A stretch of DNA of 64,000 nucleotides from an uncultured Acidimicrobiales bacterium. Lineage in GTDB: Bacteria > Actinomycetota > Acidimicrobiia > Acidimicrobiales > SHLQ01. Positions 25,868-38,286 of this stretch are shown here, in pieces; position 1 is the stretch's first letter; the number at the start of each line of letters is the position of its first letter. The notes under the pieces were generated by a model. The model was given only the letters and a program-made list of their open reading frames with translations, was not told the origin of the DNA and searched no databases. The stretch lies in assembly GCA_964451305.1 (NCBI GenBank), contig CAYVHV010000012.1:8353-72352 (forward strand). The letters are read 5' to 3'. Both the position numbers and the translations under genes were made by a program.

Positions 25868-26845
25868 TTACTCGGCGCAGAAGTCCTTGAGTGACTGGAG
25901 CGGGCGCGCACCGATGTGGGTGATGATTTCAGCGGCTGCGCAGCTGCCCATCTGACCAGCAACATCGAGCGGCGCTCCGCTCGCTAACCCGGCGAGAACA
26001 CCAGCGGCATAGAGGTCACCAGCACCGGTGGTATCGACGCGCTTTTCAACCTCGACCACCGGAACACGAATCACGTCATCTTTGGTCACGATGATCGAAC
26101 CATCGCGGCCTTGGGTGATGCACGCGGTTTCGGTGAGGTCCCGAACGCCAGCGATGAGCGCATCGTGATCTTCGGTACCGAGCAGCGAAACCACTTCGTC
26201 CTGGTTGCCGAAGAGCAACGTGACACGGTCAGCAATGAGCGAAAGCCACTCGTCTCGATGACGGTCGACCGCGAAAGGATCAGAAAGCGTGAGCGATGCG
26301 GTAACCCCGTTGTCCTTTGCGATATCCATCGCATGTCGGATTGCTTGCTTGGCCTCTTCGAGGTCCCACAAGTATCCCTCGCAGTAGAGGATCTTCGACC
26401 CAGCGACGAGGCCCTCATCGATATCGCTTTTCGTCAACCTCGAGCTTGCCCCCAGGAACGTGTTCATCGTGCGCTCACCATCGGGGGTGACCTGAATCAA
26501 ACAGCGCGCCGTTGCTGGCCCAGCGTTCGCCGGGGCGACATCGAACTGGACCCCGGTATCGCGAATTCCTTGGACGAACGCATCGCCGAGTTCGTCGTCT
26601 CGAATCTTGCCGACATAGGCAGCGCCGATCCCGAACGACGCGACTCCGACCATCGTGTTGGCTGCGGAGCCGCCGGATTCCTTCAGCCCATCGGGCATGA
26701 GAGCGGTGAGCGTTTCGGCACGTGGTTCATCGATGAGCGTCATCGATCCACGGTTGAGGTCATGGTCCGCAATGAAGCTGTTGGGTACCTGACCGATCAC
26801 GTCGACGATGGCGTTACCGACGCCAACCACATCTGCAGTACTCAT
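25868..26845 (-). CDS. PfkB-family carbohydrate/nucleoside kinase, adenosine-kinase-like
   Basis: ORF 25868..26845(-). VGVGNAIVDVI...GGSAANT...DTTGAGDLYAAG (PfkB signature 2). The substrate assignment is inferred. Confidence 0.75.
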   Translation of the reverse strand: MSTADVVGVGNAIVDVIGQVPNSFIADHDLNRGSMTLIDEPRAETLTALMPDGLKESGGSAANTMVGVASFGIGAAYVGKIRDDELGDAFVQGIRDTGVQFDVAPANAGPATARCLIQVTPDGERTMNTFLGASSRLTKSDIDEGLVAGSKILYCEGYLWDLEEAKQAIRHAMDIAKDNGVTASLTLSDPFAVDRHRDEWLSLIADRVTLLFGNQDEVVSLLGTEDHDALIAGVRDLTETACITQGRDGSIIVTKDDVIRVPVVEVEKRVDTTGAGDLYAAGVLAGLASGAPLDVAGQMGSCAAAEIITHIGARPLQSLKDFCAE

Positions 26846-26963
26846 TTACTCGTCTCCTCGACGCCTTGGCACGGCCTCCGAAGGTACCATTCTGACCTCC
26901 GACCTCCACCATTCGCTCCCGGGTACATCGTCTGTCGATCCGGACCGCTCAATAAGGAAATCA

Positions 26964-29462
26964 ATGGCTCATCGCTTGCCCCGCACGATCCTTCCCGTTT
27001 CGTACAACGTCGAGATCCAACCCGACCTCGTCAGCCATTCCTTTCGTGGAGCTGTCACGGCGACGTGCGAGGTCGTCGAGGCAACGAACGAGCTGCGCTG
27101 CAACGTTGCCGACCTCACATTGAGTGATGTGACCATCGATGGCAAAGCGGTCTCCTTCACGATCGATGACGAATCCGAACAACTTGTGATCGACTTGGGA
27201 GCGGAACGAGCGCTGGGACCACTGACGTTCGCTGCATCATTCGAGGGAGAACTCAACGACGCTCTGAAGGGGTTCTATCGCTCGACCTTTACCGACGATG
27301 ACGACGTCGAGCACACGATTGCGACAACACAGTTTCAGTCAACCGACGCTCGCCGAGCCTTCCCGTGTTGGGACGAGCCGGACATGAAGGCAACCTTCGA
27401 AATTACGCTCGTCGTCGACCCACGATTCACTGCGGTAAGCAACGGGGCCGAAGTCTCGCGGGAAGACCGCGATGACGGACTCGTCGCGATCGGCTTTGCC
27501 GAAACGATGAAGATGTCGACGTATCTCGTCGCCTTCGTCGTCGGCCCGCTCGAGATCTCAGAGCCCGCCTTCCACCGCGATGTGCCGATCCGCATCGTGC
27601 ATCGTCCAGGTCAAGGCCACCTGACCGGGTTCGCGCTCGAGGTCGCAGTTCATGCCCTTGCCTACTTCGAGGACTACTACGGGATCCCCTACCCCGCGGA
27701 CAAGCTCGACATGATCGCGCTGCCCGACTTCGCGATGGGCGCAATGGAGAACTTGGGGTGTGTCACCTACCGAGAGATCCTGCTCCTCGTCGATCCCGAC
27801 GCTGCGACCCAACCCGAACTTCAGAACGTCGCCGATGTGATCAACCATGAGCTCGCACACATGTGGTTTGGCGATCTGGTCACGATGGGATGGTGGAATG
27901 GCATCTGGCTGAACGAGGCGTTCGCAACCTTCATGGAGATGAAGGCGACCGACGATCACCGTCCTGAATGGATGCGTTGGACGAGCTTTGGAATCAGCCG
28001 TTCTGCAGCGTTCGACATCGACAGTCTCGAAGCCACCCGCCCTATCGAGTTCCCGGTCGTATCACCCGAAGACGCCGAAGGCATGTTCGACCTGCTCACC
28101 TACGAAAAGGGGGCGGCGGTTGTTCGTATGCTCGAACAATGGCTTGGCGAAGAAACGTTCCGAGAGGGCATCCGCCACTACCTCGCAACCCACGCCTACG
28201 GGAACACCGAGACCCATCACCTGTGGGATGCACTCGAGCATATCTCGGGTCGGCCGGTCACCGCTGCAATGGAGACGTGGATCTTCCAAGGCGGGTACCC
28301 GGTCATCGAGGTGACCGCGGGTGAGCTACACCAGCGTCGATTTACCTACACCGGAAAGGGCGAAGCGCAGACGTGGTCGGTTCCAGTGCAATTGCGGACG
28401 ACGTCGGGAGATGTCCACACCGTGGAAGTCCACGAAGACACCGCCGAGCTTCCGGTGCCCGAATCGAGTGTCGCGACATACAACCACTCGGGCAACGGCT
28501 TCTTCCGAGTAAAGGTCCCACGCGAACAGCTGAAGGCCTACGGCGCAAGCGGCGTTGAGGGCCTCGCCCCCGTCGAACGTTTCGGACTGCTCGACGATTC
28601 GTGGACGTTGACCCTCGCCGGCGAAGTCGACCTCGCCGACTACCTCGCGCTCATCGGTGGATATTCGACCGAGACCGATGTATCGGTGTGGCAGCGTGCG
28701 ATCGGTTCGTTGAGCTTCATCGATCACGTCGCATCGGACTCGGACCGGGCCGCGCTGGGCACCATGATCAATGCACTCATCGCTCCGACGCGAGACAAAC
28801 TCGGTACTGAGCCGCCGGCAGGTGAGTCACCTCGAGACGGGCAGTTGCGCGGTTCGCTGTTCGCTGCGGCAGGCACGCTCACCGCCGACGGTTCAGACAC
28901 TCGAAATACGGCGATCGCGTTTGCCCGCGAGATCCTTGCGGCCGACGCCCCCGATGCCGAGCTGCGAAGCGCTGCGGTGAAGATCGTGGCGGCCAACGGC
29001 ACCGACGACGACTTTGCGACATTCCGCTCTGGATTCGAAACCGCTTCTACTCCCCAAGATGAGATCCGTAACCTCTACGCGTTGCCCGCCTTCCCCAGTT
29101 CGACCCATATCGACACGGTTGTATCGATGGCGCTCGACGGGTCGATCCGCACACAGAACGCGCCGTTCGTTCTCGCTCAAGCATTGATGAGCCGCGACCA
29201 CGGTGCGGCCACGTGGGACCGGATCAGTCGCAGCTGGGACGATGTCAACGAACAGTTCCCGTCAAATACGATCGTGCGCATGCTGACCGGCATCCGCTGG
29301 CTGACCAACGAAGACACCCGTACATTGGTACGAGACTTCTTTACCGACCGCGAGATCCCACAGGGTCAAAAGCAGCTCGATCAGCACCTCGAACGCCTCG
29401 ATGTCAACGCTGCATTTCAGACTCGCGTGCAACAGAACCTACAGGCAGCACTTCAGCGTTGA
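26964..29462 (+). CDS. pepN: Aminopeptidase N (M1 family)
   Basis: ORF 26808..29462(+). GAMENLG exopeptidase motif and HELAHMWFGDLVTMGWWNGIWLNEAF (HExxH-x18-E). Start moved to ATG 26964 (MAHRLPRTILPVSY). Confidence 0.9.
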   Translation: MAHRLPRTILPVSYNVEIQPDLVSHSFRGAVTATCEVVEATNELRCNVADLTLSDVTIDGKAVSFTIDDESEQLVIDLGAERALGPLTFAASFEGELNDALKGFYRSTFTDDDDVEHTIATTQFQSTDARRAFPCWDEPDMKATFEITLVVDPRFTAVSNGAEVSREDRDDGLVAIGFAETMKMSTYLVAFVVGPLEISEPAFHRDVPIRIVHRPGQGHLTGFALEVAVHALAYFEDYYGIPYPADKLDMIALPDFAMGAMENLGCVTYREILLLVDPDAATQPELQNVADVINHELAHMWFGDLVTMGWWNGIWLNEAFATFMEMKATDDHRPEWMRWTSFGISRSAAFDIDSLEATRPIEFPVVSPEDAEGMFDLLTYEKGAAVVRMLEQWLGEETFREGIRHYLATHAYGNTETHHLWDALEHISGRPVTAAMETWIFQGGYPVIEVTAGELHQRRFTYTGKGEAQTWSVPVQLRTTSGDVHTVEVHEDTAELPVPESSVATYNHSGNGFFRVKVPREQLKAYGASGVEGLAPVERFGLLDDSWTLTLAGEVDLADYLALIGGYSTETDVSVWQRAIGSLSFIDHVASDSDRAALGTMINALIAPTRDKLGTEPPAGESPRDGQLRGSLFAAAGTLTADGSDTRNTAIAFAREILAADAPDAELRSAAVKIVAANGTDDDFATFRSGFETASTPQDEIRNLYALPAFPSSTHIDTVVSMALDGSIRTQNAPFVLAQALMSRDHGAATWDRISRSWDDVNEQFPSNTIVRMLTGIRWLTNEDTRTLVRDFFTDREIPQGQKQLDQHLERLDVNAAFQTRVQQNLQAALQR

Positions 29463-30607
29463 GCACTCCCGCCCGAAGGCTCCGGCCACCATTTTCATCA
29501 CTCGACGAGCACGAGGTCTTTGCCGTCGAAGCCGAAGACGTCCAGCTATGTGTTCGATCGAGCTCAGACGAGGTCGTGGTGGCCGTTGCTGGTCAGCGGG
29601 TAGCGGCGAGAACCCAAGACGGTGTTGCCGTCGTGTCGATCGGTGATTTGCACCCAAATACGACCTATGTGGCATCGCTCGAAACCGGTCGAGGCGACCG
29701 CGCTGCACAGCTTTCGTTCACGACGCGGCCCGCTCTCTTGGGAGCCACCACCAAGTTCGCCACCATCTCCGACGTTCATCTCGGAGCAACCGACTTTGGT
29801 GGCGCACCTTCGGTCTCCGAACCTGCAGGAACCACTCCGCCGTTCGCGTTACGTTGCGCCGCTGCGGCGGTGAGCGAAGCGATTGCGTGGGGTGCAGAAG
29901 CACTTCTCATCAAAGGCGACCTCACCGATACCGGATCGGATGAAGACTGGGGACTCGCACACGAGCTCCTCGACGATCTTCCAATACCGGTAATGGCGAC
30001 GTGGGGAAACCACGACGTGTGGAAGACCCGCGACATCGATCCAAGCGACGCTGCCAGGACGTTCTCGTTTGCGTCGGGCCCCGTCATCACCGCCGAACTT
30101 GGCCCGATCCGAATCGTGCTCGCTGACACGTCGATGCCGGACAAAGGAATGGGTGACCTCGCCCAACACGCCGACCAGATGCTCCAGTACGCCGATACCG
30201 ATCGGCCGGTCTTCCTCGGCATTCATCACAACATCATGCGGACACCGGTCCCGTGGTTCTGGCCAGCGGGCATTCCATCGACCAACGCCGCACCGGTGCT
30301 CGCCGAACTTGCCCGAGTGAACCCCAACACGTTCATTAGCTCAGGGCACACCCATCGCAATCGACGCCACCATGTCGGCCCAAACCGTGGGCTCACCTTT
30401 ACCGAGGTCTCCGCAACAGCGGACTATCCCGGTGCCTGGGCCGGCTATGAGGTCTCCGAAGACATGATTCGCCAGACGGTCCGCCGTACCGCAGCACCCG
30501 AAGCGCTCAACTGGAGCGAGCGTCACCGAAGCGCCATCAACGGCGTCTGGGCCCGTTGGGCCCAAGGTCGCCTCGATGACCGTTGCGTAGACGTGGCGAT
30601 CACCTAG
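29459..30607 (+). CDS. Calcineurin-like metallophosphoesterase with N-terminal FN3-like (purple-acid-phosphatase-type) domain
   Basis: ORF 29213..30607(+). ISDVHLG, ...KGDLTDTG..., ...WGNHDV..., ...GIHHN... and ...SGHTHRN are the MPE motifs. No ATG follows the pepN stop; the proposed TTG 29459 overlaps it, so start confidence is low. Confidence 0.7.
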   Translation: MSTPARRLRPPFSSLDEHEVFAVEAEDVQLCVRSSSDEVVVAVAGQRVAARTQDGVAVVSIGDLHPNTTYVASLETGRGDRAAQLSFTTRPALLGATTKFATISDVHLGATDFGGAPSVSEPAGTTPPFALRCAAAAVSEAIAWGAEALLIKGDLTDTGSDEDWGLAHELLDDLPIPVMATWGNHDVWKTRDIDPSDAARTFSFASGPVITAELGPIRIVLADTSMPDKGMGDLAQHADQMLQYADTDRPVFLGIHHNIMRTPVPWFWPAGIPSTNAAPVLAELARVNPNTFISSGHTHRNRRHHVGPNRGLTFTEVSATADYPGAWAGYEVSEDMIRQTVRRTAAPEALNWSERHRSAINGVWARWAQGRLDDRCVDVAIT

Positions 30608-30685
30608 ATCGGCATACCGCGCCGATGCCACAAACGCTCGTCGGCAGCGGCCGAAGAATCCCCCTAGTGGCTAATCTCACCGAGT

Positions 30686-31945
30686 ATGAACTTTGACCTA
30701 TCGGCAATCGAGCTCCGGGTGATGTGTGCGTTGGCGGAAAAAGAGTCGACGACACCGGATCAGTATCCGCTGAGCACGAACGCCCTTCGCTCGGCGTGCA
30801 ATCAAAAGACGAGCCGCGATCCAATCACCGATGTCTCCGAAGCCGACATCGAATCAACCATCTTGTCGTTACGAGAGCGCGGTCTCGTTCGCAGCCTGAA
30901 ACCGACAGGTTCGCGGAGTTGGAAACATCGCCAAACCCTGCCCGAAGTCCTTCCGCTCACCGACGGCGAGTTGGCGCTGGTGACCGTGCTTGGGTTGCGC
31001 GGTCCGCAAACTCCTGGTGAACTCCGCCAGCGCACCGAGCGCATTTCCTCCTTCGAATCGGTCGAAGAATTAGAGGGCACACTCCAGGGTCTCGCGAACC
31101 GGGACAACCCTGTCGTAGAGAACCTCGGACGCGAGCCCGGCCAAAGCCAAGACCGCTGGATGCATCGTCTAAGCAGCGACACCCAAAGTCCTCAGCAGGG
31201 TCGCCAGCGCGTGATGGCAGCGGAGTTCGCTGCACTGCACGAGTCGGGATTCTTTGCGCTCCCCAACCCGTGGGACCTCATGTCGGCCAAAGCCATGGAG
31301 GCTGCCGGTGCCAAAGCGGTCGCGACGAGTAGCGCTGCGTTAGCCGCAGTTCTCGGCAAGGATGACTATGGGATCGAGCGCTCCGAGCTGGTCGACCATG
31401 TCGCTCAACTCGCGGAACACCTCTCCATCCCGGTACACGTCGATAGCGAACAGCTCTTCCCGAACGACCCCGGTGGTATTGCCGAGACGGTTCGACTGCT
31501 CGCAGGCGCGGGAGCGGCGGGGGTCTCTATTGAAGACTTTGATCCCGCAACCGAATCGATCATCGATCGGTCAGCGGCCATCGAGGCCGTCACCGAAGCT
31601 GTCGACGCGTGTCGTCAGCATCATCTCGTGCTCACCGCGCGCCATGAGAGTCACCTCTATGGTCCTGCCTCGCTCGACGAAACCATCGAGTGTTTATCGG
31701 CATATGCCGACGCCGGCGCGGACTGTGTGTACGCCCCAGGCCTCACCGACACGGACGAGATCCAACGGCTGGTTGAAAACGTTGGGGCGCCGGTCAACGT
31801 GCTGGCGTTACCCGACGCTCCAGAAAGCGAGTTCCTCGAGTTGATTGGCGTTCGCCGAGCATCCACGGGATCGCTGCTGTTCCGAAACGTCGAACGAACT
31901 ATGGTGGCGGCGATAACCAACTTCCTCGGAAACGGATCACTATGA
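30686..31945 (+). CDS. Fusion protein: N-terminal YceH/DUF480 winged-helix domain plus C-terminal isocitrate lyase/PEP mutase family domain
   Basis: ORF 30686..31945(+). Residues 1-165 align with my recollection of E. coli YceH (LSAIELRVMCALAEKESTTPDQYPLSTNALRSACNQKTSRDP...LRGPQTPGELRQRTERI...REPGQSQDRWMHRL). The rest is ...FFALPNPWDLMSAKAMEAAGAKAVATSSAA...VHVDSE...AGVSIED, which is ICL/PEPM-like. Confidence 0.75.
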   Translation: MNFDLSAIELRVMCALAEKESTTPDQYPLSTNALRSACNQKTSRDPITDVSEADIESTILSLRERGLVRSLKPTGSRSWKHRQTLPEVLPLTDGELALVTVLGLRGPQTPGELRQRTERISSFESVEELEGTLQGLANRDNPVVENLGREPGQSQDRWMHRLSSDTQSPQQGRQRVMAAEFAALHESGFFALPNPWDLMSAKAMEAAGAKAVATSSAALAAVLGKDDYGIERSELVDHVAQLAEHLSIPVHVDSEQLFPNDPGGIAETVRLLAGAGAAGVSIEDFDPATESIIDRSAAIEAVTEAVDACRQHHLVLTARHESHLYGPASLDETIECLSAYADAGADCVYAPGLTDTDEIQRLVENVGAPVNVLALPDAPESEFLELIGVRRASTGSLLFRNVERTMVAAITNFLGNGSL

Positions 31946-32592
31946 CCACCACCGATAGCGACGAAACTCCCGCTCGGCCCGTTCACCTGACCGTCTATTC
32001 GGACTTTCTCTGACCGTGGTGCTACGTCGGGACCGTGCGTCTCGACAAGCTGCAAGAACAGATGGGTGACCGAATCACCGTCGAGTGGAAGTCCTTTCTA
32101 TTGCGAGCGGAGCCAAAGACGGACGATCACGATGCGTTCGTCGAGTACACAACGTCGTGGCTGCGCCCGGCCGAGATGGAGGCCGAAGCACACTTCACCG
32201 TCTGGGCGAGTGCCGAAAGCCAACCCGATTCGAGCATTCCGGCCCAGGTCGCGTTCAAAACTGTCGAGGCGATCGCTCCCGAGCTCGCCAAGCCGTTCCA
32301 CGACCGGCTGATGACCGCATACTTCACCGAGAACCGCAATATCTCAAATAGCGACGTCCTCATGGAACTCGCTGGCGACGTGGGGGTCGATACCGCCGCT
32401 CTTGAAGAAGCGGGCCGAAGCCGCCGTGACGAGTTCACTCAGCTCGTGATCGACGAACACAACAGCGCAATGTCCCACAACGTCACCGGGATACCCACCG
32501 TGCTGTTTGAGAATCAGTTCCCCGTGCCGGGCGCGCAACCGCTCGCCGCATATGTGGACATCGTCGAACGGATCGAAGCGCACTTCGCGTAG
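31942..32592 (+). CDS. DsbA/FrnE-family thiol:disulfide oxidoreductase with in-frame TGA at the first Cys of CPWC (candidate Sec codon, or nonsense-disrupted gene)
   Basis: Manual translation from ATG 31942 (ATGA overlap with the upstream stop): MTTTDSDETPARPVHLTVYSDFL-TGA(32011-32013)-PWCYVGTVRLDKLQEQ..., continuous with track ORF 32035..32592. C-terminus NVTGIPTVLFENQFPVPGAQP is the DsbA/FrnE cis-Pro region. Confidence 0.6.
32026..32046 (+). promoter_or_regulatory. Hairpin 12 nt downstream of the in-frame TGA (SECIS-like candidate)
   Basis: gtcggga(c) / (g)tctcgac gives 7-8 bp including one G-U pair. The apical loop ccgtgcg contains GU, and a possible 3-bp lower stem (tgc/gca region) is separated by an internal loop. 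Confidence 0.35.
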
Positions 32593-32653
32593 CTGTGACC
32601 TGACCTGCTCGCGAGCGTTGACTACGGTGTGGCTGAACCGGCGGCTTTGACAC

Positions 32654-33247
32654 ATGACTTTCTCTTTCGAACCACAACTGATCAAACAGGACTCGGCGGT
32701 TCCCCTCAGAATGATGACCGGCGGCTGGATAGCTGGCGCTGCGATCATCTTGCTCATCGGACCGGTAGCAAACCGGCTCATTGCATTCATGGGAATCTCC
32801 TTGATCGCCGGGGGCTTGATCGCGCTTCACCTGCGTGGCACTCGCATGTGGCGGATGGTCCTCGGCGCGAGCGCTGGGGCTGTCGCTGCGTGGCTCGGCT
32901 TTCGTTTCGCATTCTCCGATCGACTACTCCCAGCGACCAGCGACCCGCTCGAGCTGGCAAATACCGATCTGCTCTTCGCCGTCGCCCTCGGTCTTTGTGT
33001 CCTTTCGATTGGTCTCGGCGGAGTGCTCGAGGCGGTCCGCGCACAGGGAACGCCGGGCTCATCTCCCGTTCCGGTCAAGATCTTCCTCATCGTCGTCGGC
33101 CTATTTATTACCGCGGCGATTGCGAGCGGCGCTGGGGTCTCTATGGGAATCACCCTCCTGCTCGCCATCGGTGCTGCTGCTGGACTGAGCGCTATGGCCT
33201 TCCTCCGAAGAGAACGTCCGGCGAGCGACTTCGTCCCACAACCCTGA
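32654..33247 (+). CDS. Hypothetical polytopic membrane protein
   Basis: ORF 32654..33247(+). About five hydrophobic segments (WIAGAAIILLIGPV..., FMGISLIAGGLIAL..., LLFAVALGLCVLSIGLGGV..., IFLIVVGLFITAAIA..., ITLLLAIGAAAGL). Confidence 0.6.
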   Translation: MTFSFEPQLIKQDSAVPLRMMTGGWIAGAAIILLIGPVANRLIAFMGISLIAGGLIALHLRGTRMWRMVLGASAGAVAAWLGFRFAFSDRLLPATSDPLELANTDLLFAVALGLCVLSIGLGGVLEAVRAQGTPGSSPVPVKIFLIVVGLFITAAIASGAGVSMGITLLLAIGAAAGLSAMAFLRRERPASDFVPQP

Positions 33248-33263
33248 CGGCTAGCCTCTCGGC

Positions 33264-34433
33264 GTGCGCGTACTCATCATCTCCAACGACGTCATCTCCG
33301 GCTTCGGGGTCCCCGTTGCGGCGCCTGGTCTACGGGCCATGGGCTTGGCCGCTGGTCTGACCGCTCACGGCCACGATGTATCGACATCGGTCCCGAGCGA
33401 CCTGCTCGCGCTCGTTTTCGGTGACGAGATCCCTCCAGCGCCCGACGGCGTCGACATCGTGTCTCCTCCCGATTTGATGGCTCACATAGAGCAGATCGGC
33501 GCCGACACCGTCGTATTTATCAACTCAAATTTGTCGCCACACCTGCACCCAACGCCAGGCGTCACGTTCGTCTACGACCTCTTTGCTCCGAAGTTGCTCG
33601 AGGGTCTAGCGAGCACGACCGGTGGGCGTCCGTTCGCTGGTGCGGCAGCGGAGAAGGAACGGGCACTTGCGCTCGCCGACCATGTGTGGGTGAATGGCCG
33701 GCGCAAGATGGGCTATGCGCTCGGTTGGTTACTGCGTGACGAGGTCGACCGGATCCGTACAGAGATCTTCGCCAAGCCTTCGCTTCGTGACCGCGACGTG
33801 GCGAACATGATCACCTTGGTCGAGATGCCGGTGTCGCTCCCCGAAACGGTCGAGGTTTCCACCGTCACGACCACCGAATCGCCAGACCCGGTGCGCCTCG
33901 GCCTTGCCGGATACGCACAAGCATGGAGCACGCTGTCCGAGGTCGCTCTTGGCCATCGGCTGATGATCGACGCTGGACATGCACTTCACGCCCTCACGCC
34001 ACAACACTGGGCGGGAAATCCCGATGATGCGCCGCGCCAAGCACTCCCTCCCGAAACGATTCTCCACGACGGACCATTGCCGTTCGATGAGTTCGCCCGC
34101 TGGGTGCAATCGATGGATGCGATGGTCGATCTCTTCGAACCCAGCGCAGAACGCGCCTTTGCCATGATCACGCGAAGCGCTGTAGCTCTTCGGCTCGGAG
34201 TGCCGCTTATCCATGCGGTCGATTCGGAGATCTCCGACGTAATCGAGTTCTACGACGCCGGCTGGGTTCTCGATCCTCACGATCACGATCGCTGGAACCA
34301 GATCGCCGTCGAGGTAGCAGATCCATCGATCCTCACTCGAAAGCAGCAGGGCGCTCGCCGAGTTTCACTCGAACGGTTTGCTCCTCACGCAGCCCTCGCC
34401 GAAGCGTCTGCTCGGCTGCAACACGCGACGTAA
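33264..34433 (+). CDS. Glycosyltransferase, GT-B fold (GT4-like, divergent)
   Basis: ORF 33264..34433(+). MRVLIISNDVISGFGVPVAAPGLRAMGLAAGLTAHGHDV is the typical GT4 N-terminus, with a divergent C-terminus ...ERAFAMITRSAVALRLGVPLI. GTG start. Confidence 0.6.
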   Translation: MRVLIISNDVISGFGVPVAAPGLRAMGLAAGLTAHGHDVSTSVPSDLLALVFGDEIPPAPDGVDIVSPPDLMAHIEQIGADTVVFINSNLSPHLHPTPGVTFVYDLFAPKLLEGLASTTGGRPFAGAAAEKERALALADHVWVNGRRKMGYALGWLLRDEVDRIRTEIFAKPSLRDRDVANMITLVEMPVSLPETVEVSTVTTTESPDPVRLGLAGYAQAWSTLSEVALGHRLMIDAGHALHALTPQHWAGNPDDAPRQALPPETILHDGPLPFDEFARWVQSMDAMVDLFEPSAERAFAMITRSAVALRLGVPLIHAVDSEISDVIEFYDAGWVLDPHDHDRWNQIAVEVADPSILTRKQQGARRVSLERFAPHAALAEASARLQHAT

Positions 34434-34444
34434 GGAGCGGCACC

Positions 34445-35518
34445 ATGTCAGAAACCGCCCCGACGAATCTGAGCGTGCTCGTTCCATTCTGGGGACTCGC
34501 TGGCGGGGTCATCAAGATCCTCGACTATGCGGCCCACGGAGTAGACCTCGGATTGGCGGTCACCGTCTGGGCTCCTCCACTTCCCGAAGCGGATCATCCA
34601 ATACATCAACTACCGGTCGCTCGACGTCTGATCGATGACCCTGCGGTGGATATCGCCCTCCTCGATGAACTCGACCTTCGAGACCGGGCAGGTGTCGGCC
34701 ACGTCGCCCTCTTTACCGAACCCACACATCATCGCCTGATCGAGCGAGCGATCGATCGACCTCTCGGCGCAACGCTGTGCCACCTGGTCCAAGGCACTCG
34801 ACATGCAAACCCGCTCTGGCAAGACGGCGTGAACTATCGGCTGTTACACCGACCGATGACCCGGATCGCCGTCACCCCCCAAGTCTTTGATGCGATCTCT
34901 CCGCTGGTCAACCAACGCTTCTCGCTCACCACGATCGTCGAGGGTCACGCTGCGGAGTACTTCAGCGGACGTCCCCCTCGCGACACGCTCGAAACACAGA
35001 CAGCTCGACCGTTGCGGGTTCTCTACACCACATGGAAATCTGACCTCGGCGACCGCGTTGCTGAGCTACTGGCCAACGACGAACGCTTCGCATTTATCGC
35101 AGTCCGCTCAGAAACCTCATGGCCGGCGTTGAGAAATCGGTACCACGGCGCCGACGTTCTCCTCTGCGCTCCTGGCCCCGAAGAGGGCTTCTACCTCCCT
35201 GGGCTTGAGGCAATGGCGGCCGAGGTCGCTGTGGTCTCTGCTGTCGTCGGCGGCAACGCCACCTATCTACATGACGGGGAGAATGCGTTGGTGGTTGGCT
35301 ATGACGACGCGGAGCAACATCGCGCAGCGCTCGTTCGCTTGGCCGAAAACCCGTCCTTGCGTCAGACGCTCGTAGCGACCGGCCGAGAGACAATTGCCCG
35401 CCATTCCCTTGTCCGAGAACGCGCCGATTTCAAAAGCGTCCTCGCAAACACACAACGCTCCGAACCAGCGCAGAACGGCCAACTAGCCTACGAAGCGAAC
35501 GACCAGGAGGCCCCATGA
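34445..35518 (+). CDS. Glycosyltransferase family 4 (GT-B)
   Basis: ORF 34445..35518(+). ...LLCAPGPEEGFYLPGLEAMAAEVAVVSAVVGGNATYLHDGENALVV contains the E-x7-E nucleotide-sugar motif. Confidence 0.75.
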   Translation: MSETAPTNLSVLVPFWGLAGGVIKILDYAAHGVDLGLAVTVWAPPLPEADHPIHQLPVARRLIDDPAVDIALLDELDLRDRAGVGHVALFTEPTHHRLIERAIDRPLGATLCHLVQGTRHANPLWQDGVNYRLLHRPMTRIAVTPQVFDAISPLVNQRFSLTTIVEGHAAEYFSGRPPRDTLETQTARPLRVLYTTWKSDLGDRVAELLANDERFAFIAVRSETSWPALRNRYHGADVLLCAPGPEEGFYLPGLEAMAAEVAVVSAVVGGNATYLHDGENALVVGYDDAEQHRAALVRLAENPSLRQTLVATGRETIARHSLVRERADFKSVLANTQRSEPAQNGQLAYEANDQEAP

Positions 35519-35817
35519 GCAGCACATCGCCAAATATCGGACTCACGCCAGCGACACCCATCACCTCCGATGAGAAGGCCGAACTCGACTTCCTGCGCTA
35601 TGAGGCGGCATACCTGCAACGCCGACTCGACGTTGTCGAAGACGAACTTGTTCACACCATCATCGAGCGCGACACCATTCGTCATGAGCGAAACCTAATG
35701 GCTCAGGACTTCTCGTGGACCCTCCAACGCCTCGCCCGCTCGCCAGCCGGTGTCGTGTTGTCACGCACCGCTGGATTCCGGCGCATGCTCGAAACGTGGG
35801 GACATGCCGCCGACTGA
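35515..35817 (+). CDS. Hypothetical small protein with predicted coiled coil
   Basis: ORF 35515..35817(+). ATGA overlap with the preceding GT. EKAELDFLRYEAAYLQRRLDVVEDELVHTIIERDTIRHE is heptad-like. Confidence 0.5.
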   Translation: MSSTSPNIGLTPATPITSDEKAELDFLRYEAAYLQRRLDVVEDELVHTIIERDTIRHERNLMAQDFSWTLQRLARSPAGVVLSRTAGFRRMLETWGHAAD

Positions 35818-36505
35818 CCGTCCATCGATAGAGGTCGTGCCAACGGCCGATCCAGAGGCACCCCCGCCCTTGACCCGTTGCTGCTATCGCGGGCGGCTCC
35901 GTCTTTCGGGGCCGGCGTCCGACGGCGAAGCCACCTTCGACGACTTGGTGATGCCGTCGGAACTCAACGACGCAATGTCATCGGCCGACATCGTGTCGAT
36001 CCTCGACCCGATGTCGTTCCCGTGGAACTCGATCGATCTCGATGTAAACGCGGTCGTGATCATCGACGCGTCGATGTGCAGCGATGACGACCTCGATGCT
36101 CTGCTGCCCGTGCTCGGTTCGCTGACCGCCGCAGACACGGTCATCGATCCGACCGACTCTCCCTCGCGTTCGTTGAGCCGAGCGTTGGGAACTCGCACTC
36201 ATCAGCCGTCGGTCGATGAGTGGCCGGCAGTCCAGCAGGAGAAGCACCTCCTGCGAGCCGATCGTCGAATCACCGATCGAATCGCCCGAGAGATCGGCGA
36301 CCACGCCATTGTCCAGCGCGTCGAGATCGACGAGCTCGTGGCGTCAGGAATTCGGATCGATACTTACCTATCTGAGGCCGCTGCTGCGCTGGATAGCACG
36401 GCGGTTGGCCTCTGGGGAGTCCGCACCGAGCCAGGCGCCCCGTTGCATCATGGATGGGCAATCTTTGAACCAACAGGTCACACGAACCAATGCATCCAGT
36501 ACTGA
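35804..36505 (+). CDS. Hypothetical protein
   Basis: ORF 35750..36505(+), with start moved to ATG 35804 (MPPTDRPS), overlapping the previous gene by 14 nt. No motif recognised. Confidence 0.45.
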   Translation: MPPTDRPSIEVVPTADPEAPPPLTRCCYRGRLRLSGPASDGEATFDDLVMPSELNDAMSSADIVSILDPMSFPWNSIDLDVNAVVIIDASMCSDDDLDALLPVLGSLTAADTVIDPTDSPSRSLSRALGTRTHQPSVDEWPAVQQEKHLLRADRRITDRIAREIGDHAIVQRVEIDELVASGIRIDTYLSEAAAALDSTAVGLWGVRTEPGAPLHHGWAIFEPTGHTNQCIQY

Positions 36506-37254
36506 TCGCCGGGGTCCACCGAAGCGGGACATCGTGGGTTGCGCGAACGCTCCACGAGGCTGGAATGAACCTCGGAGACGACCTCCTCGGCGACCAACCA
36601 GGCAATCCATACGGTCATTTCGAAGACAACCGCGTCGTTGCATTGCACGATGCCGCGCTCGAAGAACAAGACTTGACATGGAAGAGCACGACTCCGGTCC
36701 AACATCGTTCAGAGTCCGACCTACGTGTTGGTATCGATGCGATCGTACGTGAGCGAAGCAATACGGCGACACCGTGGGCCATAAAGGACCCTCGGCTGTG
36801 CTTGTTTCTTCCGGAATGGCTTGCCGTTGCACCCCAGAGTCGCCTGATCGTCGTCTTTCGCAGACCCGACGAGGTTGTCGAGTCGCTGCGCCGACGACAC
36901 GCCCGGCGATGGGTCCACACTCGCCATGTTGATCCAAGCGATCTTGCCTTTTGGGAACAGCCCGACCTTGGACTGCACCTGTGGGTTCACTACAACGAAC
37001 AACTGCTCATCAGCGCGAGATCAATGGATCCAGGTCACGTGCACGTCATCGAATGGAACACCACCGGCGCGACTTCGAGGCTGGTCTCATCGATCGCCGA
37101 GAAATGGAATCTCGAACTTACGCCGACGACGATTTCCCTAGATCCCACGCTCGGGAAACGTTCCACACGCCCGCTCGAAGTCCATGATCCACGTTTGATC
37201 ACCCGAGCGGAAGCAGCGTGGGCTGGTCTTCAGGAACTGCGAAGCGCTCCATAG
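36490..37254 (+). CDS. Sulfotransferase family protein
   Basis: ORF 36490..37254(+). VLIAGVHRSGTSWVARTL is 5'-PSB-loop-like and VVFRRPDEVVESLRRR is 3'-PB-like (R-x7-S). Overlaps the previous gene by 16 nt. Confidence 0.65.
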   Translation: MHPVLIAGVHRSGTSWVARTLHEAGMNLGDDLLGDQPGNPYGHFEDNRVVALHDAALEEQDLTWKSTTPVQHRSESDLRVGIDAIVRERSNTATPWAIKDPRLCLFLPEWLAVAPQSRLIVVFRRPDEVVESLRRRHARRWVHTRHVDPSDLAFWEQPDLGLHLWVHYNEQLLISARSMDPGHVHVIEWNTTGATSRLVSSIAEKWNLELTPTTISLDPTLGKRSTRPLEVHDPRLITRAEAAWAGLQELRSAP

Positions 37255-37329
37255 TCCACCGGGGCCTATTTTCGTCTCGTTGCAACAGTTCGTCTCAAGT
37301 CATCGAGAGCCGACGCCGATCTCCTCGGT

Positions 37330-37845
37330 ATGGACATGATTGGAGATCGTCGCGGGAAATCACGTCGCAAGATCGTTCTTCTCGATCTCGAAAATATGCT
37401 CTTTGGCGATCACAAGGGCAACGACAACGGCCAGCCACGCGACCGCTCAGCGGAAATTCTTGAACTCGCTCAAGCTCGCCGACCCGGCGACACCATCATC
37501 GTTGGATGCAACCCCCACCTCGTCTTCCTCGCTCACGACCTTTTCCCTGGATCCAAGATCGTGACGGGCAAAGGCAAGGACGGCGCCGACCTCGCATTGA
37601 TCGATGCCCTCGATCTCTCCCGAGCAATCGACCGGTATGACGAACTCTGTATCGTCTCGGGCGATCACCTCTTCTGCGAAGTGGCCCACCCCGCGCACTA
37701 CGCAGGCCTCACGGTGCGCATCGTTGCTCCGCACGCAGGCCTGAGCACTGCACTTCGGGTATACGCCGACACTGCAGTCTTCCTTCCCGAAGAATTTGAT
37801 CCCGAAGCCGACGACGAGCTCGACGCCGGCCCACTCGCCGCCTGA
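37330..37845 (+). CDS. NYN/LabA-like (PIN-fold) domain protein
   Basis: ORF 37330..37845(+). IVLLDLENML..., ...GKGKDGADLALIDAL... and ...LCIVSGDHLF...GLTVRIV match the NYN domain acidic-residue pattern. Confidence 0.7.
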   Translation: MDMIGDRRGKSRRKIVLLDLENMLFGDHKGNDNGQPRDRSAEILELAQARRPGDTIIVGCNPHLVFLAHDLFPGSKIVTGKGKDGADLALIDALDLSRAIDRYDELCIVSGDHLFCEVAHPAHYAGLTVRIVAPHAGLSTALRVYADTAVFLPEEFDPEADDELDAGPLAA

Positions 37846-37920
37846 CCAAGAACGCATCAGCGCCGAACGGCCTCCAAATTTCGTCTAAGGGCAACCGCTT
37901 CCAAGGCCGATGCCACTTGG

Positions 37921-38286
37921 ATGGAACGGCGCCTATTTCATCGTGAGAGCATTGCAATGAATGGCGACCTTTCATGGGTAACCAAAGGGCGCCTCGGCCG
38001 CAAGCAAACGCAGCGTTCGTATGTGAGAACCCTCAACCTGTCCCTCGATGGCGCCCGTATCGAGCTGAAGGGCCACTACCCGTTCCTCGTCGACGCGGTC
38101 GCTCGAATACAACTTGGGATTCGTTACTGCGACGTGCGCATACTCGACGTCGTACACACAGGCGAGCGCACGATCTTGCGTATCTTCTTCATCTCACCAG
38201 ACCCAGACTTCGTGTCGGTGATAGAGGATCAGCTCCCGTCACTCACCGCAGATCGTGAGCTCCATGAACGCAAGTGGATGGCCTAA
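37921..38286 (+). CDS. Stand-alone PilZ domain protein (putative c-di-GMP receptor)
   Basis: ORF 37921..38286(+). RRLFHR at residues 3-8 (RRxxxR) and NLSLDG at 39-44 ((D/N)xSxxG), with canonical ~30-residue spacing. Confidence 0.7.
   Translation: MERRLFHRESIAMNGDLSWVTKGRLGRKQTQRSYVRTLNLSLDGARIELKGHYPFLVDAVARIQLGIRYCDVRILDVVHTGERTILRIFFISPDPDFVSVIEDQLPSLTADRELHERKWMA

Follow-up and report, generated by a model that had tools for sequence, protein, structure and literature searches.

A YceH/DUF480 tandem winged-helix domain fused to an isocitrate lyase/phosphoenolpyruvate mutase-superfamily barrel in uncultured Acidimicrobiales

The window analysed here is a stretch of 64,000 nucleotides from an uncultured Acidimicrobiales bacterium (assembly GCA_964451305.1, contig CAYVHV010000012.1, positions 8,353 to 72,352). 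It contains a single uninterrupted open reading frame (ORF) on the forward strand (30686..31945; ATG start, stop codon TGA at 31943-31945) that encodes a protein of 419 amino acids. In this protein, a tandem winged-helix domain of the YceH/DUF480 type is joined to a (β/α)8 barrel of the isocitrate lyase/phosphoenolpyruvate mutase (ICL/PEPM) superfamily. The fusion is a new, undescribed architecture made from two known families. A sequence-only reading of this DNA had proposed it and had called for a domain scan, and the scan matched both halves strongly: the Pfam profile of DUF480 (PF04337) aligns with residues 5-153 over positions 1-149 of 149 (E 3.9e-50, 170.3 bits against a cut-off of 25) and that of PEP_mutase (PF13714) with residues 181-412 over positions 1-238 of 240 (E 3e-61, 207.5 bits against 31.5). 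As a tentative reading, to which we would give somewhat less than an even chance, the protein may be trigger-enzyme-like, that is, ligand binding or catalysis by the barrel, together with its oligomerisation, would control the winged-helix module. All coordinates refer to the window and its forward strand unless stated otherwise.

The fusion is not an artefact of assembly and not the result of a frameshift. A search of 5.8 billion clustered proteins yielded a near-identical cluster representative, with two differences in the C-terminal 243 residues, and a near-identical protein is encoded on three independent assemblies. Another 70 clusters at 90% identity, with proteins of about 415-420 amino acids and 50-74% identity, all have both Pfam domains, and on the contigs with orthologues (L001, L011-L015, L019 and L021) the protein is encoded by one ORF every time. 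Because the same single ORF is present on many independent assemblies and from different sources, an artefact is excluded. The sequence-only reading had named two outcomes that would speak against it, a domain scan without support for DUF480 at the N-terminus and a junction of two genes that are separate in the relatives. Neither was borne out: DUF480 is strongly supported, and every relative examined has one ORF. An internal start that would yield a separate barrel was also considered and rejected, as Met177 is not conserved in the family. Identity between orthologues is 60-80% in the N-terminal and 50-69% in the C-terminal domain, 22 of 25 aligned family members do not differ in the length of the linker, and the most divergent member (L021) has kept the fusion despite the absence of the usual neighbouring genes. 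Both halves are under purifying selection.

The distribution of the fusion is narrow. An exhaustive HMMER scan of 1.84 billion representatives at 50% identity gave one full-length fusion cluster (P0121, 465 bits) and three fragments that span the junction; all other matches were single-domain proteins. The hosts are named uncultured Acidimicrobiales by the genome collection. The pairing of DUF480 with the barrel arose once, is confined to one syntenic lineage of marine Acidimicrobiales and is inherited vertically within this lineage. One contig (L019, JGI Ga0535658_0032375; similar GC of 0.615 versus 0.598 in the window) carries the NCBI label 'Verrucomicrobiales bacterium'. Its gene order (metallophosphoesterase, fusion, DsbA gene, 197-aa membrane protein, 389-aa protein, GT1) is that of the window. 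The contig was probably assigned to the wrong bin, and the idea of a second host phylum, Verrucomicrobiales, was rejected.

The N-terminal domain (30698..31144) is YceH-like over its whole length. The sequence-only reading had described the first ~165 residues as collinear with YceH/DUF480, and indeed residues 1-168 align from residue 1 with YceH of Escherichia coli (PDB 5vyv; E 8e-38, 43-44% identity); matches to the structures 5vyv, 5u8j and 3bz6 have E values of 1e-27 to 1e-38. When modelled alone with AF2, the domain is a tandem winged helix (pLDDT 89.8, pTM 0.86) that superimposes on these three YceH crystal structures with a TM of 0.88-0.91 (Foldseek). Repeat 1 (30698..30934, residues 5-83) has the motifs TTPDQYPLS and ACNQKTSRDP and the wing GSRxWKH, with helices at 7-22, 31-38 and 52-64 and strands at 68-71 and 80-83. 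Repeat 2 (30938..31165, residues 85-160) has the motif LRGxQTxGELRxRxxR and the wing GRxxGQSQDRW, with helices at 93-105, 110-116 and 126-137 and strands at 144-148 and 157-160. The protein is not equivalent to full-length YceH, as the NCBIfam equivalog PRK11239 gave 147.8 bits against a cut-off of 321. Among 74 representatives of at most 50% identity, basic residues are conserved at R11, K19, R44, R63, R69, R77, K80, R105, R114, R116, R119, R149 and R157, and several of them are located in or beside the two β-hairpin wings. These representatives were picked for containing CNQ, which makes the conservation of the CNQ motif circular. The conserved basic positions fit, without proving it, a possible anion- or nucleic-acid-binding surface.

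What distinguishes the fusion from YceH/UPF0502 of E. coli (5VYV), Enterobacter cloacae (5U8J) and Pseudomonas syringae (3BZ6), with which it shares the fold, the collinear residues 1-168 and the invariant motifs, is the C-terminal part: spacer and amphipathic helix are missing and a barrel of 240 residues is found in their place. In other Acidimicrobiales, the DUF480 core of stand-alone YceH proteins is followed by a low-complexity spacer and then by an amphipathic, heptad-like helix at the C-terminus (for example LRAEVAELRRLVERLYEQLG). Most representatives in our library have the same layout, with tail motifs such as RVAALEARLAxLExELGL. In the window protein, 27 residues lie between the two Pfam matches and a tail helix of the YceH type is absent. 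The inter-domain linker (31166..31225, residues 161-180) occupies the position of the spacer and the helix, and AF2 predicts a helix at 169-187 that runs into the barrel (pLDDT 74-85). We infer that the barrel sits where stand-alone YceH has its coiled-coil-like C-terminal helix. The loss of this helix argues for a precise replacement of one module by another rather than for read-through.

The barrel is not the only partner of DUF480. Fourteen of 20 unusually long DUF480 representatives that were scanned carry a different extra domain C-terminal to DUF480. M19 dipeptidase, S-adenosylmethionine (SAM)-dependent methyltransferase, VOC/glyoxalase, SnoaL-like and THAP4-like (nitrobindin-like) haem-binding barrel domains were found twice each, and ALDH, CMD (AhpD-like) and GNAT domains once each. 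One further long representative has a Suc_Fer-like domain N-terminal to DUF480 and has kept the C-terminal helix. The M19 fusion is present on three long contigs (82-196 kb) with the source label Acidimicrobiales, and the methyltransferase fusion cluster has five members on at least five contigs. DUF480 is thus a modular unit with an interchangeable C-terminal partner, of which the barrel fusion is one instance. The fusion had been called unusual before, and this holds for the exact pairing, which is rare; fusions of DUF480 to other C-terminal domains are recurrent. Proteins with such other fusions are P0145, P0162, P0148, P0196, P0226, P0242, P0228, P0175, P0240, P0241, P0254, P0258, P0231 and P0192.

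These data bear on the question of whether the two domains are functionally coupled at all. The fusion could be a neutral accident, in which the stop codon between two once-adjacent genes was lost and the product became fixed in one clade, or it could be an artefact. The restriction to a single 50%-identity cluster would fit such an accident, as would the fact that no other genomic association of the two families was found. However, an artefact is incompatible with the same ORF on many independent assemblies, both domains and the length of the linker are conserved down to 50% identity, and the removal of the YceH helix points to a precise replacement. Moreover, among the relatives and stand-alone loci examined, none has the two genes adjacent yet separate. 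We therefore regard an absence of coupling as very improbable. A fusion of formerly adjacent genes is likewise unsupported by six stand-alone YceH loci (L002-L007), which have no barrel gene within ~8 kb and are not syntenic with the window.

The C-terminal domain (31226..31921, residues 181-412) is a confident (β/α)8 fold with a target-normalised TM of 0.82-0.89 to 4lsb, 2ze3 and 4mg4 (Foldseek), and the predicted structure includes a C-terminal helix at 397-413. Residues 177-414 align with 4lsb, a 'putative lyase/mutase', at 43% identity (E 2e-47), and 2ze3 follows with E 3e-29. No reaction has been assigned to any of the four best matches, 4lsb, 2ze3, 4mg4 and 2qiw; the PDB title of 2ze3 (DFA0005) indicates a structure with bound α-ketoglutarate. 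The alignments place the barrel in an uncharacterised 4LSB/DFA0005-like branch of the ICL/PEPM superfamily. This branch is a working grouping and not a curated family; it is defined by the closest structures, a D-x-E metal motif, a 13-residue loop after IED and a barrel of ~240 residues without extra C-terminal segments, all of which the window protein has. The motifs PNPWD..SA, ATSS, VDSE and GVSIED, from which the sequence-only reading had recognised the superfamily, are present in the translation.

The binding site of the barrel is intact. In a HMMER alignment to PrpB of E. coli (1xg3), residues D58, D85, D87, E115 and R158 of PrpB correspond to D227, D253, E255, E283 and R319. D227 (31364..31366) aligns with D58 of PrpB and PEPM and would belong to the Mg2+ shell. 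D253-S-E255 (31442..31450) corresponds to the metal motif D85-x-D87 with the second Asp replaced by Glu. E283-D284 (31532..31537) is part of the IED motif, and R319 (31640..31642) aligns with the Arg that binds the substrate carboxylate in PrpB. The S45/G46 turn of PrpB corresponds to S215/S216, and the Ser/Thr carboxylate-binding turn T214-S215-S216 is kept. These site residues, D227 among them, are invariant and identical in 71 fusion proteins and 48 stand-alone homologues; only position 215 varies (Ser or Thr). Judged from the alignments, the acidic Mg2+ cluster of D227, D253, E255 and E283 is kept. As the site residues are the same as in the stand-alone relatives, the barrel has not decayed since the fusion, and it apparently retains whatever capacity for Mg2+/2-oxo-acid binding or catalysis these relatives have.

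The chemistry of PrpB is not to be expected from this site. The seven-residue gating loop K121-R-C123-G-H-R-P of PrpB, typical of ICL and methylisocitrate lyase (MICL), is deleted between A288 and T289 (31547..31552), seen as a gap in the alignment to 1xg3, and E188 of PrpB aligns with an invariant Pro351. The motif K[KR]CGH is present in none of 120 homologues and the loop after IED has a fixed length of 13 residues in 119 homologues. Since the gating loop is equally missing in the stand-alone relatives, its absence is a trait of the subfamily and not a decay after the fusion. A PrpB lyase was rejected: TIGR02317 gave 74 bits against 354.4 and PRK11320 57 against 353, in addition to the deleted catalytic loop and the replacement of E188 by Pro. 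The description of the barrel as PrpB-like thus stands at the level of the superfamily and fails below it, and the earlier suggestion of a C-C lyase or mutase is unsupported on account of the last two differences. A phosphoenolpyruvate mutase was rejected as well, with 38 bits for TIGR02320 against 319.6. The motif EDKx5NS, which is specific for Ppm (PMC8942020), was found in none of the 120 fusion and stand-alone homologues, where IED is followed by F, Y or W instead of Lys.

In summary of these likenesses, the barrel shares the superfamily fold, the acidic Mg2+ cluster and the equivalent of R158 with PrpB (TIGR02317; 1MUM, 1XG3) and isocitrate lyase, but not the gating loop with the catalytic Cys123. 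With Ppm (TIGR02320) it shares PF13714, the Pfam family that bears the name of Ppm, but not EDKx5NS. Closest are 4LSB from Burkholderia cenocepacia, 2ZE3 (DFA0005) from Deinococcus ficus, 4MG4 and 2QIW, which also have the D-x-E motif and a short loop after IED and lack KRCGH. Stand-alone barrel homologues of 52-59% identity have every conserved site residue in common with the fusion. In contrast to the fusion, 4LSB-like proteins are single-domain proteins of ~245-295 amino acids without an N-terminal winged-helix module. Two further proteins with barrels of this kind were observed. In P0125 a barrel of the stand-alone 4LSB-like type is fused C-terminally to a Glyoxalase/VOC domain. P0153 combines the N-terminal domain of a 5'-3' exonuclease with the barrel; here, a chimeric gene call is possible.

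An intact barrel site, the replacement of the usual helix and the presence of small-molecule-binding domains at this very place in other DUF480 proteins lead us to the trigger-enzyme-like reading. ICL/PEPM barrels are obligate helix-swapped oligomers and, for this reason, the barrel would supply the oligomerisation. Its ligand or substrate would be a Mg2+-chelated 2-oxo or oxalo acid like oxaloacetate, pyruvate or 2-oxoglutarate, and the binding or conversion of this acid would in turn control what is bound by the winged helices. These probably recognise a nucleic acid or another polyanion, since at least 12 basic positions are conserved in a domain that is net acidic. Enzyme-regulator fusions of comparable design are well known: BirA combines a winged helix-turn-helix (wHTH) with biotin ligase and PutA a ribbon-helix-helix with a TIM-barrel proline dehydrogenase, and NadR and MocR/GabR belong here as well. 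All have an N-terminal module of the helix-turn-helix type together with an intact, oligomerising enzyme or ligand-binding domain. The fusion is homologous to none of them and the analogy is restricted to the way of working.

The same evidence can be read in favour of a metabolic enzyme. In this case the barrel would catalyse a stand-alone, 4LSB-like reaction, for example the decarboxylation, tautomerisation or hydrolysis of an oxalo or 2-oxo acid, and DUF480 would be a non-regulatory appendage. Such an appendage could help the protein to dimerise, to dock on other proteins or to reach its place in the cell, much as a winged-helix domain serves dimerisation in plant O-methyltransferases. The identity of the barrel site residues with those of stand-alone homologues is what one would expect of such an enzyme, many partners of DUF480 are genuine enzyme families (M19, ALDH, methyltransferase, GNAT), and DUF480 is acidic, has no specific DNA-binding analogues and has the N-terminal winged helices of O-methyltransferases (5icg, 4a6d) among its weak Foldseek matches. 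However, DUF480 is better conserved than the barrel across the orthologues, and the conservation of at least 12 basic residues across phyla suggests that it is not passive but interacts with its own conserved ligand or partner. Moreover, stand-alone YceH is widespread without any enzyme partner, and some partners are binding domains and not enzymes (SnoaL, haem-binding barrel, VOC). We consider a plain metabolic enzyme rather unlikely.

At the other extreme, the barrel could be an inert sensor and the protein a pure one-component regulator, i.e. a ligand-gated winged-helix transcription factor. MocR/GabR, with a wHTH of the GntR type and an aminotransferase-like sensor, would be the analogue. 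The arrangement of an N-terminal winged helix with a variable C-terminal small-molecule-binding domain would suit such a regulator, and both the gating loop and the general base E188 of PrpB are missing; in addition, a computed interactome of E. coli groups YceH with proteins that have the annotation of negative transcriptional regulators. The loop is, however, missing in all stand-alone relatives too, and these are presumably enzymes. An operator-like element could not be defined, and a promoter and terminator scan of 26500-33400 was at chance level and thus uninformative. In some orthologues the gap to the upstream gene is very short, which makes an autoregulated promoter directly upstream unlikely, and strong conservation across phyla is atypical of sequence-specific repressors. 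A pure regulator is, in our view, distinctly unlikely.

Returning to the trigger-enzyme-like reading, several observations weigh against it. The full-length AF2 model has a mean pLDDT of 93.3 and a pTM of only 0.69, so that a defined interface between the domains is not demonstrated. Beyond the YceH structures, Foldseek found only generic winged-helix analogues of the N-terminal domain (RPC62, ESCRT-II, AlkX/YcaQ, MarR and ScpB) with E > 1e-3 and TM < 0.4. This domain is net acidic (pI 5.2 in the window protein, 5.2-6.9 overall), and its identity of ~44% to E. coli YceH is unusually high for a sequence-specific regulator. The literature searched contains no experiment that shows binding of DNA or RNA by any DUF480 protein, nor a published ligand, substrate or activity for any member of the 4LSB/DFA0005-like branch. 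The genomic context does not help either. With no barrel gene within ~8 kb of stand-alone YceH, an independent genomic link between the two families is missing, and the stand-alone barrel loci L016-L018 have no common neighbours and hence give no hint to a pathway. The synteny with the metallophosphoesterase and DsbA genes described below could reflect mere shared descent in a narrow clade, and the context adds no independent functional link.

The fusion gene is part of a conserved gene order: a PfkB-family kinase (on the opposite strand), an M1 aminopeptidase, a metallophosphoesterase, the fusion, a DsbA-family gene, a membrane protein of ~197 amino acids and glycosyltransferase genes. The gene directly upstream (29576..30607) encodes a calcineurin-like metallophosphoesterase with a weak NCBIfam match to the SpdA phosphodiesterase. 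It is found upstream and on the same strand in each syntenic locus examined, with one small ORF in between in L013. In L021, tblastn detected neither the metallophosphoesterase nor the DsbA gene beside the fusion. No genes of propionate catabolism or phosphonate metabolism were found near the fusion, and the genes around stand-alone YceH and around stand-alone barrels match neither those of the window nor one another. Further upstream, the M1-family aminopeptidase N (26808-29462) scored 316 bits with TIGR02412, which is below the equivalog cut-off. Its ORF comprises 884 amino acids if taken mechanically, and gene callers let it begin 52 codons later (832 amino acids).

Downstream, the stop codon of the fusion overlaps with the start codon of the DsbA-family gene (ATGA, 31942..31945; start ATG at 31942-31944), as followed from the sequence and the reading frames. 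The translational coupling that had been read from this overlap is present in the window but not universal: in L014 and L015 the two genes are separated, and L021 lacks the coupling altogether. In L014 (7395-10151, reverse strand) and L015 (6190-8934, reverse strand) a gene for ~915 amino acids with SdrD_B/CLIPPER repeats lies between the fusion and the DsbA-like gene. In the DsbA-family gene (31942..32592; PF01323 on the called 3' part), the first position of the redox motif (FL-U-PWC) is taken by a TGA in frame (32011-32013). The motif reads SDFL-TGA-PWC. In seven of seven orthologous loci the TGA is conserved together with the in-frame coding sequence that precedes it, and a conserved hairpin with two compensatory pairs starts ~15 nt past the TGA. 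The DsbA-like protein is a probable selenoprotein with selenocysteine in a UxxC motif. Gene callers shorten the gene to 179-191 amino acids, and to 93 in L015. A gene for tRNA-Sec was not found within the window. For DUF480, a SelB-like role in binding a selenocysteine insertion sequence was considered because of this adjoining gene and rejected: Foldseek gave no SelB, and stand-alone YceH occurs also in other contexts.

A conserved cluster further downstream (~33264-38000, and 12654-16569 of L008) encodes unannotated proteins of 364-389 amino acids, a GT1 glycosyltransferase, small unannotated ORFs and a Sulfotransfer_3 protein, followed by genes for NYN, HhH-GPD, TauD and GT2 proteins. This cluster may be one for the modification or sulfation of a cell-surface glycan.

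The literature searched (full text) did not yield a study on the function of YceH/DUF480/UPF0502, nor one on that of the 4LSB/DFA0005 branch. The statement that no described function links the two domains was confirmed insofar as this literature gave no link between them and no function for either half. Apart from gene lists, YceH appears there only in a single cluster of a computed interactome, annotated 'negative regulation of transcription'. PDB titles call it 'involved in membrane biogenesis', and an accompanying publication was not found in the literature searched. The yceH gene of E. coli presumably lies between rimJ and yceM/murJ.

It is tempting to extend these considerations to the whole family. 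DUF480/YceH could represent the conserved output module in a family of modular winged-helix proteins that has so far gone unrecognised. By default, its members would oligomerise via a C-terminal coiled coil, and variants would exchange this helix for small-molecule-binding or enzyme domains. The window protein would then be a trigger enzyme that responds to a 2-oxo acid and YceH of E. coli a regulator or adaptor of the same pathway. Taken as a whole, this is a speculative and rather improbable reading. On this view, electrophile, carbonyl or redox stress would be a theme that the partners of DUF480 have in common, in line with the adjoining selenocysteine-containing DsbA-like gene.

The occurrence of YceH/UPF0502 extends from E. 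coli to Actinobacteria, and three crystal structures have been solved, yet the literature searched assigns it no function. Natural fusions are one of the few routes by which sequences alone can lead to a hypothesis on its role. The one described here comes from a narrow, uncultured clade, and sequence analysis identifies neither its ligand nor its target; the clue to the role of YceH is a modest one. What it provides is a partner for the orphan 4LSB/DFA0005-like branch, of which four structures and no assigned reaction are at hand. For YceH itself, the surveyed fusions indicate that the position of the C-terminal helix is interchangeable with small-molecule-binding or enzyme domains, and this leads to a testable model in which YceH would be an oligomerising, ligand-coupled winged-helix module.

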